From contig JAJZTZ010000001.1 of NCBI GenBank assembly GCA_021847305.1, positions 1 through 58,104 of the forward strand: a stretch of 58,104 bases of DNA, read 5' to 3'. Shown one piece after another: positions 1,426-6,485 of the stretch. Made by a program: the position numbers and the translations under genes. The first letter of the stretch is position 1; each line of letters starts with the position of its first letter. Under the pieces are notes generated by a model. It did no database searches. It was not told where the DNA came from and was given only the letters and a program-made list of their open reading frames with translations. This DNA comes from Pseudomonadota bacterium (GTDB lineage: Bacteria; Pseudomonadota; Gammaproteobacteria; Burkholderiales; JAJZQI01).

Positions 1426-1498
1426 GCCCAACGTCAAAGCTCAGGGGCAGGACAAAAGCGCAGCTTTTGGCCTGTCCCTCTGGAGCGCCGTGTTGGGC
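1426..1498 (-). repeat. attC site 4
   Basis: GCCCAAC GTCAAAGCTCAGGGGCAGGAC [AAAAGCGCAGCTTTT] GGCCTGTCCCTCTGGAGCGCCGT GTTGGGC. The extra bases are on the right arm. Confidence 0.85.
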
Positions 1499-1523
1499 GA
1501 CATTGACTCACCATGTACGCAGC

Positions 1524-1778
1524 TTATTTGATTACAGCTAACCAAGCCGCAACTGCACTTACAAGTGAGGCAACAGCAGAAAATACGGCCACCAGCCAAA
1601 GACGGTGCTCACGCAGGTGCCGTTCAGCTTCCAGTACCCGGCGTTGTAATTCATAGTCATCAGCAATTATCGGCACGTTCCCACGGCCTGGAACGACTAC
1701 CGACTGGTCTGTTTCCATGATGACACCCAATTGCTCAGCTCTTTTTCGTAGCGCATCGCCGACGAGAAGTTTTTTCAT
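1524..1778 (-). CDS. Hypothetical 84-aa tail-anchored protein, second gene of cassette D
   Basis: The ATG lies 2 nt after the stop of the upstream M48 gene. A soluble N-terminal part has a helical stretch (DYELQRRVLEAERHLREHR). A single C-terminal TM segment follows (LWLVAVFSAVASLVSAVAAWLAVI). Confidence 0.6.
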   Translation of the reverse strand: MKKLLVGDALRKRAEQLGVIMETDQSVVVPGRGNVPIIADDYELQRRVLEAERHLREHRLWLVAVFSAVASLVSAVAAWLAVIK

Positions 1779-1780
1779 CT

Positions 1781-3016
1781 CTATTCACCAATCAATTGAA
1801 CATAGACCGGGCGAATGGAAACTGAGCTGTACCGAATTTGCTTCAACGGAATGCCGAATTCCTTCTGTTCGTAGGGCTGCATGGGAGACCATGGAATTTC
1901 ATCTCTCATCAGGACCATCTGACCATTCAGATATTCCAGGGCGACAATAGCATGCGAGATTTGCTTCCCGGAGGTGTTGACCGCAACACCGAATAAACCC
2001 CGCCCCCCACCGCTTGCGTTTGCAACCTGCAACCTTAAAAATTGGAGTCTTTGCGCAGCAAGGCGTTGCTGTTCCAGTTGTTTCGTTTGGCGCTTAAGCT
2101 GTTCCGTCTTGGCTTCCGTTGCCTCTACATAGGAATTTGCAACTGTTTCGAGCAGGGCCGCAAATCCGCCTCCTTCGCCAGCCTTGGCCGTTGAAGGTTT
2201 GCTGTACGAATAAAGGGCATTGTTCGTCAGAAGCTTTTCGTGCTCCGGGTTGATTTCGCCGGGAACAAGATATTGCTGTACCGCAGAAGCGTATTTCACC
2301 ATGTTCTTGGCGCGATCATCGTTGAGCGGGTGATCGAACATCATGTCGCCTGTATAGCTCCCCATCGCTTGGTGCATGCGGTTCCATACCCGGACACCCA
2401 CTGAGGGGTCGTAACCCGCTAAAGCCAAATAAAGGGTGGAGTACTTGTCCGCTTCGGCTTCTTGGTTCGTGGTAAAGCTGGCGTCAAAGCCTTTTTCCTT
2501 TCTCAGCCCTTTGTCGGCGAGCTTGGCAATCGCCAACTTGCCTCCCTTCTCGCTAGCGTGGCGAGCGGACACATGGGCCATTTCATGAGCGAGAACAGCA
2601 GCCAGTTCGCTGTCATCTCTGAGGCCAACTTCGCCCTGAAAAATTCCGGAGAAAACAAACATTTTTCCTCCCCCAATTGTGAAAGCGTTCCATTCTGGAG
2701 AATCCAAAACGTGGACTTCCCAGGGTAGTTGCTTTCTATGCGTCACTGTTTTCAGGCGATTGAATACACGATTGACCCTCTCGTAGTAAGGCGTTTCTCC
2801 GTCAATTTTTATCCCTTTTTGCTTTGCTTGGGACAATATCTGTCGCTGCGCTTCTTCCGCTTGGCGGATTTCTTGCTCCTCAGAGACGAGATTAATCTGA
2901 CGCTGGCCGGTTACAGGGTCACGCGACGAGACGCCATCACTGACTGCCATCATGCCTTTATCGATTGAGGCGCATCCTGTGAGCGCGACGACCAGAACAA
3001 CAGAAAATAGCCGCAT
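1781..3016 (-). CDS. M48-family zinc metalloprotease-like lipoprotein with an uncharacterised C-terminal extension, cassette D
   Basis: The lipoprotein signal MRLFSVVLVVALTGC has lipobox LTGC. The HExxH motif is in LAHEMAHVSARH (His codon at 2585-2587). An SD-like AAGGTGG lies 6 nt before the ATG at 3016. The C-terminal ~150 aa (coiled coil plus beta-rich part) is not recognisable. Confidence 0.8.
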   Translation of the reverse strand: MRLFSVVLVVALTGCASIDKGMMAVSDGVSSRDPVTGQRQINLVSEEQEIRQAEEAQRQILSQAKQKGIKIDGETPYYERVNRVFNRLKTVTHRKQLPWEVHVLDSPEWNAFTIGGGKMFVFSGIFQGEVGLRDDSELAAVLAHEMAHVSARHASEKGGKLAIAKLADKGLRKEKGFDASFTTNQEAEADKYSTLYLALAGYDPSVGVRVWNRMHQAMGSYTGDMMFDHPLNDDRAKNMVKYASAVQQYLVPGEINPEHEKLLTNNALYSYSKPSTAKAGEGGGFAALLETVANSYVEATEAKTEQLKRQTKQLEQQRLAAQRLQFLRLQVANASGGGRGLFGVAVNTSGKQISHAIVALEYLNGQMVLMRDEIPWSPMQPYEQKEFGIPLKQIRYSSVSIRPVYVQLIGE

Positions 3017-3081
3017 GTCGAACCACCTTTCCTTACGTGTCCTGCCCTCAAATATTGCTTGCATAGAACGCCTCTCTTGTC

Positions 3082-3147
3082 GCCCAACGTTTGAATTAAC
3101 CGGCTGGCGCGCTTTTGCGCCAGTCCGGGTTGAATGATGGGTTGGGC
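3082..3147 (-). repeat. attC site 5
   Basis: GCCCAAC GTTTGAATTAACCGGCTGGCGC GCTTTT GCGCCAG-T-CCGG-G-TTGAATGATGG GTTGGGC. Confidence 0.85.
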
Positions 3148-3155
3148 ATAGCCGA

Positions 3156-4091
3156 CTACTCCATAAGCTGCAAAATGCCGAGAGCCTTTCCTGTTAACTC
3201 CCTTGTTGAGTTTGGCGTGATGTTGGAAACCCCAAGGCTTGCAAGGTCAGCCTTCACATCTTTCCAGAGGTAGTAGGTATCGTCAGAAGAGACTTCAAGG
3301 TAAAACCGTGTCCATTTGTCTTGGTCTTGGCGGTGGAGGATGGGAGCAGCTTGATATACATGAACGTATTTTCTGGTACCGCGTTTCTCAGTATATGCCT
3401 CGACAACCAAGTCACCCGGTTTTGCTTCTGATCGGAAGCGGGACTTGCCAGACCAACGAATTGAACGTACCTCATAGCCATCTTTTTCGACGTGCTTTTC
3501 TGCTTCCTCAAGCCCTTGTAGCTCGAATGACTCCTCGGCACTGGTGATTCGTTCGCTAAGCTGGCGCGTTGAAATAAACCACACGCGCGATTCACCAACA
3601 GTTATTTTCTTCTTGCTTTGGCGGCTAAAGCCGGAGGCGCGGACAACTGGCAGTGCTTCTATTCGCTGAAGAAACTCCTCAGTAACTTGGATGGACTCGC
3701 TCTTGACGTTCTCGATGAATCCTTGAACCAAGCCCGCAATTTGAGAGTCGTCTGTGAATAATGAAGCTTCGCAGGTGCCGACACCTGCATTTTCTGAAAG
3801 ATTCGCAGATCCAATTAACGAGTGGTTGTCGATGACGGCCACTTTAGAGTGCAATCCATCGAAGGAATAGAGTTCGGCTCCTTGATCGAAGAATGCTCGC
3901 AGAACTGAGGCCGATGTTAAGCCGCCTTTGATTGCATCATCGGATGCGTCACAGATAAGTAAATCGCCTTGGCGGAAATCAAGGTGTCGCGCTGTCACAT
4001 AAGAAATGGCGGCGCGTATGCGTTTGTGGTTTGCCGATTGCTGAGACAACTCAGCCCACAGGTCATCACTCAGGAGCGTTTTCATAGTCAT
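3156..4091 (-). CDS. Single-HKD phospholipase D-family (Nuc/BfiI-like) nuclease domain fused to an unknown ~170-aa C-terminal domain, cassette E
   Basis: The motif LHSKVAVIDNHSLIGSANLS fits HxK(x)4D(x)5GSxN (nt 3801-3851). The N-terminal ~135 aa resembles PLDc_2. The start is uncertain: TTG at 4103 lies inside the attC core, and ATGs occur at 4091 and 4085. No SD. Confidence 0.8.
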   Translation of the reverse strand: MTMKTLLSDDLWAELSQQSANHKRIRAAISYVTARHLDFRQGDLLICDASDDAIKGGLTSASVLRAFFDQGAELYSFDGLHSKVAVIDNHSLIGSANLSENAGVGTCEASLFTDDSQIAGLVQGFIENVKSESIQVTEEFLQRIEALPVVRASGFSRQSKKKITVGESRVWFISTRQLSERITSAEESFELQGLEEAEKHVEKDGYEVRSIRWSGKSRFRSEAKPGDLVVEAYTEKRGTRKYVHVYQAAPILHRQDQDKWTRFYLEVSSDDTYYLWKDVKADLASLGVSNITPNSTRELTGKALGILQLME

Positions 4092-4163: not shown

Positions 4164-4458
4164 GCTGCACATTTACACAGCGAAGTTTCAATCGGCAACG
4201 GATTACCTTGACCAGTGCGGTGAGGTTGAATTCCGTGGCGGGTTTGAGCCGGAGAAGCTGATTTACGCCGACTGCTGCGGGAAACAACGGCCAGCAAAAG
4301 ACTGTGTTGTGCAGTGCTACTACGATGGCCAGAGCATCTGGTGCGCACCTGAAAAGGGCTGCAAAGACCCGCAAGTGATTGCGGCGAAGAAGGCACGAGA
4401 GTTTGCGAATCGGAGTGCAGGACAAAAGGCTCGATGGGCGAAGGCATCTAACGTTTAG
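4162..4458 (+). CDS. Hypothetical Cys-rich 98-aa protein, cassette F (inverted)
   Basis: The ATG overlaps the GTTAGAT box. Seven Cys fall within ~50 residues (DQCGEV, DCCGK, KDCVVQCYYDGQSIWCAPEKGC), followed by a basic C-terminal tail. The two 119-aa antisense ORFs cross attC 6 and look spurious. Confidence 0.45.
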   Translation: MLHIYTAKFQSATDYLDQCGEVEFRGGFEPEKLIYADCCGKQRPAKDCVVQCYYDGQSIWCAPEKGCKDPQVIAAKKAREFANRSAGQKARWAKASNV

Positions 4459-4509
4459 CTTAAGGGGCGCGCGGCTTTTCGCGCGTCCCGCTTGAAGCGC
4501 CTGTTAGGC
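4446..4509 (-). repeat. attC site 7
   Basis: ATCTAAC GTTTAGCTTAAGGGGCGCGCG GCTTTTC GCGCG-T-CCCGC-TTGAAGCGCCT GTTAGGC. The reverse complement reads GCCTAAC..CTTCAAGCGGGAC...CCCTTAAGCTAAAC GTTAGAT. Confidence 0.85.
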
Positions 4510-4524
4510 GCTATTGGAGGAAAG

Positions 4525-4716
4525 ATGAAACCGAAAGACATTATGTTTTCCGTGAACGAATACGACCGCGATGGTGATTGCACCGACAAGGGTGTATTCC
4601 TCCATTTCGGAGAAACGAAGGTAAAGGCTGCGGACGGCATCAAGGAATTTGCCGAGATCGTGCGCCACTTCGAGGCGATGGTGGAAGAAATTGAAACCAA
4701 CTATGCGGACGCCTAA
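4525..4716 (+). CDS. Hypothetical acidic 63-aa protein, cassette G (inverted)
   Basis: The ATG is preceded by GGAGGAAAG. The sequence is MKPKDIMFSVNEYDRDGDCTDKGVFLHFGETKV... The stop TAA lies inside the GCCTAAC box. The track ORF starts earlier (4492), inside attC 7. Confidence 0.45.
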   Translation: MKPKDIMFSVNEYDRDGDCTDKGVFLHFGETKVKAADGIKEFAEIVRHFEAMVEEIETNYADA

Positions 4717-4760
4717 CGTAAATTAGGCGGCGTTGGAAAAGTGGTGTCACGCCGCCTAAA
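4711..4760 (-). repeat. Degenerate terminal attC-like hairpin (half site)
   Basis: The sequence is GCCTAAC GTAAATTAGGCGGCG [17-nt loop] CGCCGCCTAAATCTA. The inner box is complementary to GTTAGGC at 4503-4509. There is no outer core box and there are no bulged bases. Confidence 0.55.
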
Positions 4761-5025
4761 TCTATTTATTAAATTTATATCCATTAAATAACAATAACTT
4801 AATAATCGCATTTGCTTTTAACCCAACCTAAAAAAATGCGGATGAAAGTTCATGTTCTACATAAACATCCTTGCCCTTCCTGCCATGATATGCGGACATT
4901 TGGATTATGACAAATGATTGGATTTATCACTTATTTTCACTTCAACAAGAGCGTGCCAAAAGACAAAACAGAGCCCGTGGCCTTAGGGTTCTGGTCGCGA
5001 AGGGATAAAACGGACTAACAGGAAT

Positions 5026-5079
5026 GGCGCAAAGCCGAGATACCGCATTAAACGGTATCTTGATGGCTTGCTTTGTGCC
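5026..5079 (-). terminator. Compound hairpin downstream of gltX (putative terminator)
   Basis: The inner stem is AGATACCG/CGGTATCT (5038-5060). The outer stem is GGCGCAAAGC/GCTTTGTGCC. Only a weak U-tract follows on the - strand. Confidence 0.4.
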
Positions 5080-5090
5080 CTAACCGAAGG

Positions 5091-6485
5091 TTAGGAAGCG
5101 GACAGGGCGTTGAGCTGGCGGCGCAGGCGGGTCAGCACTTCATCTTTGCCGATGAGTGCCAGAACGGCATCGATGGAGGGGGTTTGCGGTTCGCCGGTGA
5201 CCAGCACGCGCAGGGGCATGGCCACCTTGGGCAGTTTCAGGCCGTGTTCCGCGACGATGGCTTTCATCACGTCGTGAATGGCTTCGCGGGTCCAGTCGAT
5301 GGCTTCAAAGCGGTCGGCCACTTGTTGCATCACCGGCAGAATGTCTGCACCGACGTGCTGTTCGATGACGGCGGGTTCGGCATCCAGCGGTCGATAGAAA
5401 TACACGGCCGCATCGGCCAGTTCTTCAATGGTGTTGACGCGTTCTTTCAGCAGGTCGATGACCAGCGGCAGGGCCGGGCCATGGCTCGGGTCGCATTCGT
5501 CGCGCAGCAGAAAGGGGCGGACCAGTTCCGACAAACGGTTGCTGTCGGCCTGCTTCAGGTATTGCTGGTTGATCCAGTTGAGCTTTTCCGGGTTGAAGCG
5601 GGACGGAGAGCGGGAGATGCCTTCCAGATTGAACCATTCGGTAAACTGGTCCATGGTAAACACTTCTTCGTCGCCTTTGGCCCAGCCCAGGCGTGCCAGG
5701 TAGTTGAGCAGTGCCTCGGGCAGGTAGCCGTCTTCTTCATACTGCATCACGCTGACCGCGCCGTGGCGCTTTGACAGCTTTTCCCCGTCGTGTCCCAGAA
5801 TCATCGGTACGTGTCCGTACTTGGGCAAGGGGGCGCCGAGCGCCTTGAGGATGTTGATCTGGCGCGGTGTGTTGTTGACGTGGTCGTCGCCGCGAATCAC
5901 GTGGGTGATTTGCATGTCCCAGTCGTCCACCACCACGCAGAAGTTGTAGGTAGGTGAACCGTCCGAGCGGGCAATGATCAGGTCGTCCAGCTCGCTGTTC
6001 TGCACAATGATCTGCCCTTTCACCAGGTCGTCGATGACAACGGCGCCGTCGAGCGGGTTCTTGAAGCGGACAACCGGTGACACGCCGGTCGGGGGCGTGG
6101 CGGTTGAGTCGCGCCAACGACGGTCGTAGCGGGGTTTCTCGCCTTTGGCCATCTGCTCTTCGCGCATGGCATCGAGCTCTTCCTTGCTGGCGTAGCAGTA
6201 ATAGGCTTTGCCTTCGGCCAGCAATTGGTCGATCACTTCCTTGTAGCGATCCATGCGCTTGGTCTGATAGAAAGGACCTTCGTCGTAGTCGAGCCCAAGC
6301 CACTTCATGGCATCGAGAATGACCTGGGTGTTTTCCGGGGTGGAGCGTTCCAGATCGGTGTCTTCAATACGCAGAACAAAGGTACCCTTGTGCCGGCGAG
6401 CGAATGCCCAGGAGAACAGGGCAGTACGGGCGCCGCCCAAGTGCAGATAACCGGTGGGGCTGGGAGCGAAACGGGTGCGGACCAT
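5091..6485 (-). CDS. gltX: Glutamyl-tRNA synthetase
   Basis: 464-aa ORF. The N-terminus [20 protein letters not shown] carries the HIGH-type motif. KLSKR is the KMSKS-type motif. Confidence 0.96.

Follow-up and report, generated by a model that had tools for sequence, protein, structure and literature searches.

What could an exported peptidase and a very small membrane protein have in common, that the two should travel in one integron cassette? The question is raised by cassette D, a two-gene cassette in a 58,104-nucleotide stretch of DNA (the window) from a Pseudomonadota bacterium of the Burkholderiales (contig JAJZTZ010000001.1 of GenBank assembly GCA_021847305.1). The window is the longest contig (C170) in a 184-contig assembly (85% complete, 58% GC). 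The first gene of the cassette encodes an M48-type metallopeptidase lipoprotein and the second an 84-residue protein that is predicted to be anchored in the membrane by its C terminus. Comparison with related loci suggests a conserved module made of a constant small gene and a swappable exported peptidase, which is M48 here and DUF4344 in sister lineages. We give a probability of roughly 50% to the reading that this is a functional module in which the small protein is an accessory partner other than an inhibitor; our confidence in any exact molecular step is much lower.

Cassette D holds two closely spaced genes between attC sites

The attC array occupies the first 5 kb of the window (51% GC) and is read on the minus strand. 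Its left side runs off the contig end and its other side abuts gltX at 5091. We searched for attC sites with a strict pattern and fold of our own (RYYYAAC ... GTTRRRY, with paired ends and a strong fold), which misses degenerate sites. In the whole window this detector found sites at 919-987, 1426-1498, 3082-3147, and 4446-4509; the other 52.8 kb contained none, and no attC model of Rfam fired. Cassette D has the following parts.

3082-3147, minus strand: upstream attC, belonging to the preceding cassette (R'' GCCCAAC at 3147-3141, R' GTTGGGC at 3088-3082)
1781-3016, minus strand: gene for the M48 lipoprotein metallopeptidase, 411 aa (427 aa from the ATG at 3064), recognized by PF01435 and homologues
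1779-1780, minus strand: 2-nt spacer between the genes, TAG-AG-ATG, read from the sequence
1524-1778, minus strand: gene for the 84-aa, predicted tail-anchored protein, recognized by homologue clusters and dN/dS
1426-1498, minus strand: attC of cassette D itself (R'' GCCCAAC at 1498-1492, R' GTTGGGC at 1432-1426)

The upstream site folds into an imperfect hairpin of 66 nt (-32.6 kcal/mol), and cassette D's own site measures 73 nt (-39.7 kcal/mol). The cargo between them is 1499-3081; counted between the G|TT recombination points, the cassette begins past the G at 3088 and runs from 3087 down to 1432. Both open reading frames (ORFs) lie on the minus strand, point to the cassette's own attC, and end 25 nt before its R''. 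In its attC boundaries, R''/R' cores, hairpins, and ORF orientation the unit is an integron gene cassette, and no attC lies between its genes, as the initial annotation had described it. Nor does the junction at 1779-1780 hold any promoter-like or terminator-like site. The first ORF, 1781-3064, encodes 427 aa, and an internal start at 3016 gives 411 aa (MRLFSVVLVVALTGC). A Shine-Dalgarno-like motif accompanies both candidate starts, and the 16-residue extension from 3064 is missing from distant M48 homologues; 3016 is the likely start, with 3064 as an alternative upstream ATG. The 2-nt spacing recurs in L025, L028, and L143 and also in the DUF4344-linked loci L109-L111 and L113-L115.

The small gene follows two families of exported peptidase

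The small ORF is a real gene. It is under purifying selection, with a dN/dS of 0.11-0.12 against three relatives, and its product has 38 close clusters; a profile search extends the family to at least 325 representative clusters (E ≤ 0.001), almost all of 75-110 aa. We then looked at what stands in front of this gene in its nearest clades. In all four look-ups (nine loci, five distinct small proteins: L108, L109-L111, L112, L113-L115, and L116), it lies directly behind a gene for an exported DUF4344 protein (PF14247). The small proteins of these loci are 58-79% identical to that of the window, and the junction is a 2-nt gap, 11 nt, or an ATGA overlap. The DUF4344 partners have signal peptides, four conserved cysteines, and HELGH and EEDAAD motifs, so they appear to be exported zinc peptidases. 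Inspection by eye shows attC-like sequences around several of the pairs, and the downstream attC and flanks vary from locus to locus. The linkage is old, since the DUF4344 partners have diverged to 38-41% identity, yet their small genes are still 59-64% identical and still adjacent.

In a maximum-likelihood tree, all small proteins linked to a protease fall into one clade (89/82). Within it, the M48-linked sequences are intermixed with one DUF4344-linked group (92/93), and the sister group is all DUF4344 where the context is known. In DNA, the alignment of L109 with the window begins at the ATG of the small gene and does not extend upstream. Between window 1524-3016 and L028:1191-2683, the small gene is 91% identical in DNA (83% at third codon positions) and the M48 gene about 77% (51%). 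This step in similarity near the gene junction implies a recent recombination of the 3' part of the module. Taken together, the intermixing in the tree, the start of the L109 alignment at the ATG, and the mismatch in identity between the M48 and small genes indicate that the peptidase has been replaced at least once, that the break lay at the gene junction, and that the newcomer was again an exported zincin. The two peptidase families give no blastp match to each other and an hhalign probability of 2%; both have HExxH, ExxAD, and H-x5-R in this order (read from alignments A1 and A4). Because they are unrelated at the profile level, the arrival of another exported zincin looks function-driven. 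The suggestion of a protease and a membrane partner that are mobilized as one unit thus finds strong support where it was not expected: the small gene is coupled to two families of exported zinc peptidase with no relation at the profile level.

At one of the DUF4344 loci, L113:1526-1924 (also in L114 and L115), an LprI-type protein of the lysozyme-inhibitor family (PF07007) is encoded about 100 nt downstream of the pair on the same strand.

The association breaks down in more distant relatives

We surveyed 20 loci with full-length or nearly full-length M48 homologues from the side of the peptidase. They are listed here by the identity of the M48 protein to that of the window.

Window, 100%: small gene intact, 2-nt gap
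L025, 98%: small gene present, with an extra T that shifts the frame within the helix
L028 and ten contigs of the same abundant population (L141-L150), 86%: small gene intact wherever read (L028 and 7 of the 10 contigs read; the 84-aa gene called in the other 3)
L027, 82%: small gene intact
Sedimenticola hydrogenitrophicus (isolate), 87%: small gene absent
Sedimenticola metagenome-assembled genome and L026, 81%: first 45-60 nt of the small gene left, then unrelated DNA
L029, 74%: small gene replaced by an unrelated 170-aa gene, then attC
L014, sponge symbiont, 59%: single-gene cassette, sites 2012-2108 and 3379-3470
Methylophaga, 46%: M48 gene carried by a P4-like island, with an HNH_2 protein as neighbour
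All other M48 homologues, at most 61%: small gene absent

In four lineages whose sequence was read directly (the window, L025, L027, and L028/L141-L150), the small gene stands 2-3 nt behind M48; apart from it in this closest clade, no conserved neighbour of M48 was found among the 20 loci. Four genomes with an intact M48 homologue, one of them an isolate, gave no small-gene match at E ≤ 0.01; the model used in these searches recovers the window's own copy at 2.9e-44. The initial annotation had expected the small ORF to be conserved next to homologues of the protease. This fails for most M48 homologues. Seen from the small gene, an exported HExxH peptidase precedes it in each context sampled from its nearest clades, M48 in this lineage and DUF4344 in the others.

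Several results weigh against a functional module. The small gene is dispensable to M48, as it is missing from 16 of the 20 tabulated loci, decayed to a remnant of about 45-60 nt in L013 and L026, and frameshifted in L025. Small-gene clades at a greater distance (50-61% identical) have no adjacent peptidase. Among 400 sampled genomes of the class, DUF4344 occurs in 14 and the small gene in 1, never together; generic DUF4344 genes lack a small partner, and the paired DUF4344 subfamily must be rare. The genomic contexts come from about 15 small-protein clusters, and the tree of the small proteins rests on 87 alignment columns. No tail-anchored protein is known to us that assists a peptidase exported through Sec/Lol. 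Finally, an accessory role does not account for the conservation of the small protein's N-terminal domain and juxtamembrane helix.

Some of the altered copies have features of their own. At L025:2353-2370, the extra T falls in the run that encodes the start of the transmembrane helix and leads to a 120-aa product (P0133); it is either a sequencing error or early decay. At L013:5233-5420 and L026:1515-1640, the small-gene remnant is interrupted by DNA with a GGGAGAC...GTCTCCC inverted repeat, possibly a small repeat element.

The distant small genes were found in these places.

Plasmid: beside a DUF433/PIN-like pair
TniB-type transposon
Integrase island: with M78/DUF4411, RmuC, and an AAA ATPase
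Two short contigs
One viral contig (1 in 2.9 million viral contigs)
L118:1435-3227: stop codon overlaps (ATGA) the start of a gene for a 487-aa exported protein

L118 is from the only one of the sampled genomes of the class with a relative of the small gene, and its 487-aa protein has an F5/8 type C / NADase_transloc-like domain. It is an exported partner, but downstream and not a peptidase. In L007:4348-4719 and L105:3299-3673, a distant relative of the small gene is followed, about 20 nt downstream, by the gene of a conserved protein (123-124 aa) that likewise has a single hydrophobic helix at its C-terminal end. The surroundings of the two loci are unrelated (a TniB-type transposon and an integrase/defence-type island), and the neighbour has no match in Pfam, PADLOC, or PHROGs. 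The two genes may form a second, peptidase-free partner arrangement.

The M48 lipoprotein has a C-terminal module of its own

Pfam assigns residues 79-240 of the 411-aa protein to PF01435 with 72.4 bits against a cut-off of 20.3. Conservation was read from an alignment of 23 M48 sequences (A1) and the fold from an AlphaFold2 model (pLDDT 87, pTM 0.81) with an M48 core, a helix at 283-323, and a sandwich at 324-408.

2972-3016, minus strand: signal peptide with lipobox L-T-G-C (Cys15, at least 90% conserved in A1)
2573-2587, minus strand: HEMAH zinc site, H144 E145 H148 (residues 144-148), invariant in A1 and inside the PF01435 match
2447-2467, minus strand: NQEAEAD, residues 184-190, with Q185, E186, E188, A189, and D190 invariant in A1
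2312-2332, minus strand: HPLNDDR, an HPx4R motif, with H229 and R235 invariant and P230 at least 90% conserved in A1
2048-2170, minus strand: one long alpha-helix, residues 283-323 (41 residues), in the AlphaFold2 model
1784-2047, minus strand: six-strand Ig-like beta-sandwich, residues 324-411, in the AlphaFold2 model (block pLDDT 76-96)

The lipobox, the HEMAH site, and the acidic NQEAEAD cluster named in the initial annotation are all present, and the coiled coil and beta-rich extension that it proposed appear in the model as the long helix and the sandwich. By the E. coli rule, the Ala at +2 suggests sorting to the outer membrane, and the protein is probably anchored there and faces the periplasm. 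Glu186 is likely the third zinc ligand, by analogy with the M48 family. HPx4R is the autoinhibitory plug motif described for BepA and the M48 family (bioRxiv 10.64898/2026.07.01.735768). A PF01435 score above gathering, HExxH with its Glu, HPx4R, and the catalytic fold all place the protein in this family, and its catalytic apparatus (HExxH, Glu ligand, and HPx4R plug) is intact. The gene evolves with a dN/dS of 0.03-0.10. Its homologues form about 100 full-length clusters (clustered at 90% identity) from Sedimenticola, Methylophaga, Thiogranum, sponge and clam symbionts, and many metagenomes.

What sets this protein apart is its C-terminal part. In a Foldseek search of the Protein Data Bank (PDB), the catalytic core matched 3C37, a minimal M48 structure, and the protease domain of BepA (6AIT and 6SAR) with a probability of 1.00 over about 210-260 aligned columns. 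The C-terminal part retrieved generic Ig-like sandwiches only, with partial matches to Cj0090 (4GIO, TM 0.55) and to the Ig-like cytoplasmic domains of Kir channels. PDB sequence profiles cover residues 45-254 only, and residues 270-411 used alone as a query gave matches confined to the same M48 subfamily. Within the sandwich, N347 and Y362 are invariant or nearly so in A1. The extension is thus foreign to BepA, LoiP, YcaL, and HtpX, as had been proposed, and does not match a common, characterized M48 architecture. The NCBIfam models of BepA, LoiP, and HtpX match weakly (at most 61 bits against cut-offs of 245-570), and the PHROGs match is a family of unknown function. The protein thus represents an uncharacterized M48 subfamily distinguished by its C-terminal module, and within a known family its architecture is a new variant.

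Two of the homologous loci carry further features. L014:960-4800, on a Methylococcales sponge-symbiont contig, has six attC-like sites. At L002:1751-7466 (also L003-L005 and L035), the Methylophaga homologue is carried by a small integrative element of P4-like type, which also encodes an integrase, a Phage_GPA replicase, and an AlpA-type HTH protein; the homologue lies 22 nt upstream of a gene for a 281-aa HNH_2/DUF3427-like protein.

The small protein is predicted to expose almost nothing to the periplasm

The initial annotation had divided the 84-aa protein into a soluble N-terminal part and a single C-terminal transmembrane segment. This division stands: a charged, soluble stretch spans residues 1-60 and a hydrophobic helix residues 61-83, which makes the protein tail-anchored by prediction. 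Alignment A2 and a predicted model place two features.

1596-1652, minus strand: near-invariant charged juxtamembrane helix, ELQRRVLEAERHLREHRLW, residues 43-61, from A2 (helix 41-83 in the model)
1530-1598, minus strand: C-terminal transmembrane helix, residues 61-83, from A2, the model, and flank charges

The N-terminal part contains the conserved motif L..G..L..RA..LG. The juxtamembrane helix has the consensus E-x-QRRV-x-EAER-xx-RE-x-RLW, in which E43, Q45, R47, V48, A51, E52, R53, R56, E57, and W61 are invariant in A2. The model shows a short helix, a low-confidence hairpin, and a continuous helix 41-83. One face of the transmembrane helix is made of conserved small residues (A64, S67, A68, S71, S74, A75, A78, and A81). 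This Ala/Ser face probably packs against other helices, by self-association or with a membrane partner. The 15 positions before the helix contain 4-5 Lys/Arg, against 0-2 in the tail of 3-7 residues. Sequence and model fit the layout of a C-tail inner-membrane protein, and since the positive charges are concentrated before the helix with few after it, the predicted topology is N-in, with a cytoplasmic N-terminal domain and almost nothing in the periplasm.

No match to the small protein was found in Pfam, NCBIfam (E ≤ 0.1), or PADLOC, and PHROGs gave one noise-level match. A fold search with its model returned nothing below E = 2. Among the longer representatives of the family, which were examined for a fusion to a peptidase, none has a peptidase domain. 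A likeness of the LL.G..L..RA..LGV motif at the N terminus to HeH/SAP/LEM domains was considered and dropped, as the sole such match was the LEM domain of emerin with E = 9.9, which is noise.

Comparison with known proteases and cassettes

The closest characterized proteins are the lipoproteins LoiP (YggG) and YcaL of the E. coli outer membrane and BepA of its periplasm. They belong to the same catalytic family as the M48 protein of cassette D and have the same motif set (HExxH, Glu ligand, and HPx4R); LoiP and YcaL are also anchored through a lipobox, and the conserved N-terminal PVTG...SE..E segment is shared as well. BepA differs in its C-terminal TPR domain, as our protein has no TPR match in Pfam and carries the helix and beta-sandwich instead; it scores 61 bits with the BepA model of NCBIfam, whose cut-off is 570. 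LoiP and YcaL are M48 units of about 250 aa, whereas this protein has 411 aa with a conserved module of about 130 residues and scores 60.6 bits against the LoiP cut-off of 365. Unlike the three E. coli proteins, it is encoded on mobile DNA. In a limited literature search, we found no tail-anchored partner described for LoiP, YcaL, or BepA.

DUF4344 is the usual upstream partner of the small-gene family. Like the M48 protein, it is exported and has HExxH, ExxAAD, and His-x5-Arg in the same order. It differs in its size (about 230 residues when mature), its four conserved cysteines, and the lack of a C-terminal helix or Ig-like domain. For the small protein, the nearest likeness is the ElaB/YqjD type, which has a helical cytoplasmic part, a single C-terminal transmembrane helix, and a very short tail (PMC6389858, PMC5525287). 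The two are alike in layout only (size, no signal peptide, and a C-terminal transmembrane helix), and their sequences are unrelated. ElaB-type genes are stand-alone stress genes, uncoupled from exported peptidases, unlike the small gene of cassette D.

The organization of the cassette resembles that of Sucellos and Toutatis in the chromosomal integron of Vibrio cholerae, in which two co-oriented genes are kept together in one attC-bounded cassette and one partner can be a membrane protein; the proteins are unrelated to those of cassette D. What sets the array of cassette D apart from the V. cholerae integron is the lack of an integrase in the assembled genome. In this 85%-complete assembly, TIGR02249 finds XerC/D-like matches only, of at most 83 bits against a cut-off of 265, and window positions 4711-5090, where the array ends beside gltX, hold no integrase or attI. 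No IntI was found in the assembly, and the array has gltX at one end and the contig boundary at the other. It is therefore either of the CALIN type (a cluster of attC sites lacking an integron integrase) or has an integrase that was not assembled. The pair and the small-protein family are not represented in Pfam, NCBIfam, or PADLOC, and a limited literature search on DUF4344 and on M48 in integron cassettes found no description of them.

A proposed role and its alternatives

We propose that the M48 lipoprotein is exported, anchored in the outer membrane, and active toward the periplasm, with its subfamily-specific helix and Ig-like domain probably binding the substrate or docking the enzyme. 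The small protein would keep its N-terminal domain and charged helix in the cytoplasm, and its Ala/Ser-faced transmembrane helix would pack with other helices. The genes are translationally coupled, the small one constant and the peptidase exchangeable. Because the inner membrane should separate the mature peptidase from the soluble part of the small protein, and because the peptidase is kept in some genomes that lack the small gene, we infer that the small protein acts as a dispensable accessory factor in or at the inner membrane. With this topology, the two could meet only at the inner membrane, before the peptidase precursor has lost its embedded signal peptide. The most plausible step, and a speculative one, would thus come during export and maturation, when the small protein would act on the precursor of the peptidase or on the signal peptide.

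A wider version of this idea takes the pair as a so far unrecognized mobile two-component envelope system, in which an oligomerizing tail-anchored protein and an interchangeable M48 or DUF4344 peptidase serve either to control peptidase export or activation across the membrane or as a compact exclusion or defence device that targets proteins passing through the envelope. We hold this to be possible but unlikely. Somewhat less likely still is a defence or exclusion cassette proper, in which peptidase and small protein are co-effectors, for instance against phage or foreign protein or DNA that enters through the envelope, and are selected together but need not touch each other. Integron cassettes are rich in compact one- and two-gene anti-phage systems, some with membrane proteins (bioRxiv 10.1101/2024.07.02.601686), and the cassette adjoining cassette D encodes a PLD-type nuclease. 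Stand-alone relatives of the small gene occur near M78/DUF4411, RmuC, AAA ATPases, a PIN-type toxin pair, and a large transposon helicase and on one viral contig, and the Methylophaga M48 homologue sits in a P4-like island beside an HNH_2 protein. These contexts are suggestive at most. PADLOC 2.0 gave noise-level matches only (Lit at E = 0.003 on the HExxH motif of M48, and none for the small protein), the PHROGs family matched by M48 has no assigned function, and the small gene appears on a single viral contig among 2.9 million.

Two-gene cassettes of chromosomal arrays are often addiction modules, and cassette D could be a toxin-antidote pair that stabilizes the cassette, with an oligomerizing small protein that would be harmful on its own and a peptidase, or its precursor, that would neutralize it. 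The distribution of the genes agrees with this in part: protease-linked clades never show the small gene without a peptidase, the peptidase occurs without the small gene, and in pairs that have broken down the decayed member is the small gene. The small-residue face of its helix would also suit pore-like self-assembly. But the mature peptidase and the small protein are predicted to occupy different compartments, distant small-gene clades persist with no peptidase, a conserved soluble domain of 60 residues is atypical for small membrane toxins, and there is no likeness to known toxin families. We consider such a pair improbable.

Just as doubtful is the absence of any functional link, with shared descent and recombination keeping together a peptidase and a selfish or neutral 3' small gene, or with two cassettes fused after loss of an attC. 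A mosaic history is what the comparison with L028 indicates, the small gene is often lost, and M48 homologues exist as a single-gene cassette in L014 and with an unrelated second gene in L029. Yet no attC remnant lies between the genes, and the same 2-nt or overlapping junction occurs with both peptidase families. The linkage has survived the divergence of DUF4344 to 38% identity, and the replacement, out of thousands of possible families, was again an exported HExxH peptidase. Purifying selection on the small gene also speaks against a neutral passenger, and with a downstream attC and flanks that differ by locus, it does not simply travel with one attC.

For the small protein, the initial annotation had offered several roles: it could be a cognate inhibitor or confer immunity, be cleaved as a substrate, or act as an anti-sigma-like sensor for the protease. 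All of these are very unlikely: tight coupling and the order of enzyme and then small partner do recall effector-immunity pairs, and DUF4344, otherwise uncharacterized, figures in a list of domains from predicted type IV secretion effectors that kill bacteria (PMC6536674), so that such peptidases can be toxic in the periplasm, but the predicted N-in topology leaves 3-7 residues outside for contact with a periplasmic enzyme, M48 is intact without the small gene in four genomes and so needs no obligate antidote, one small protein for two peptidase families unrelated at the profile level would be unusual for a specific inhibitor, and no sigma factor or DNA-binding domain is encoded nearby.

Integron arrays contain thousands of cassettes of unknown function that offer few clues past homology, and for this cassette the gene neighbourhood gives a concrete one. 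It ties together DUF4344, an unnamed family of tail-anchored proteins with at least 325 clusters, and an uncharacterized M48 subfamily with a new C-terminal domain. The accessory role predicts that the small protein, located in the inner membrane, influences how the peptidase is exported, matures, or acts. If this is true, it would represent a novel type of regulator or co-factor for envelope proteases of the M48 type, whose control is an active question in the work on BepA.

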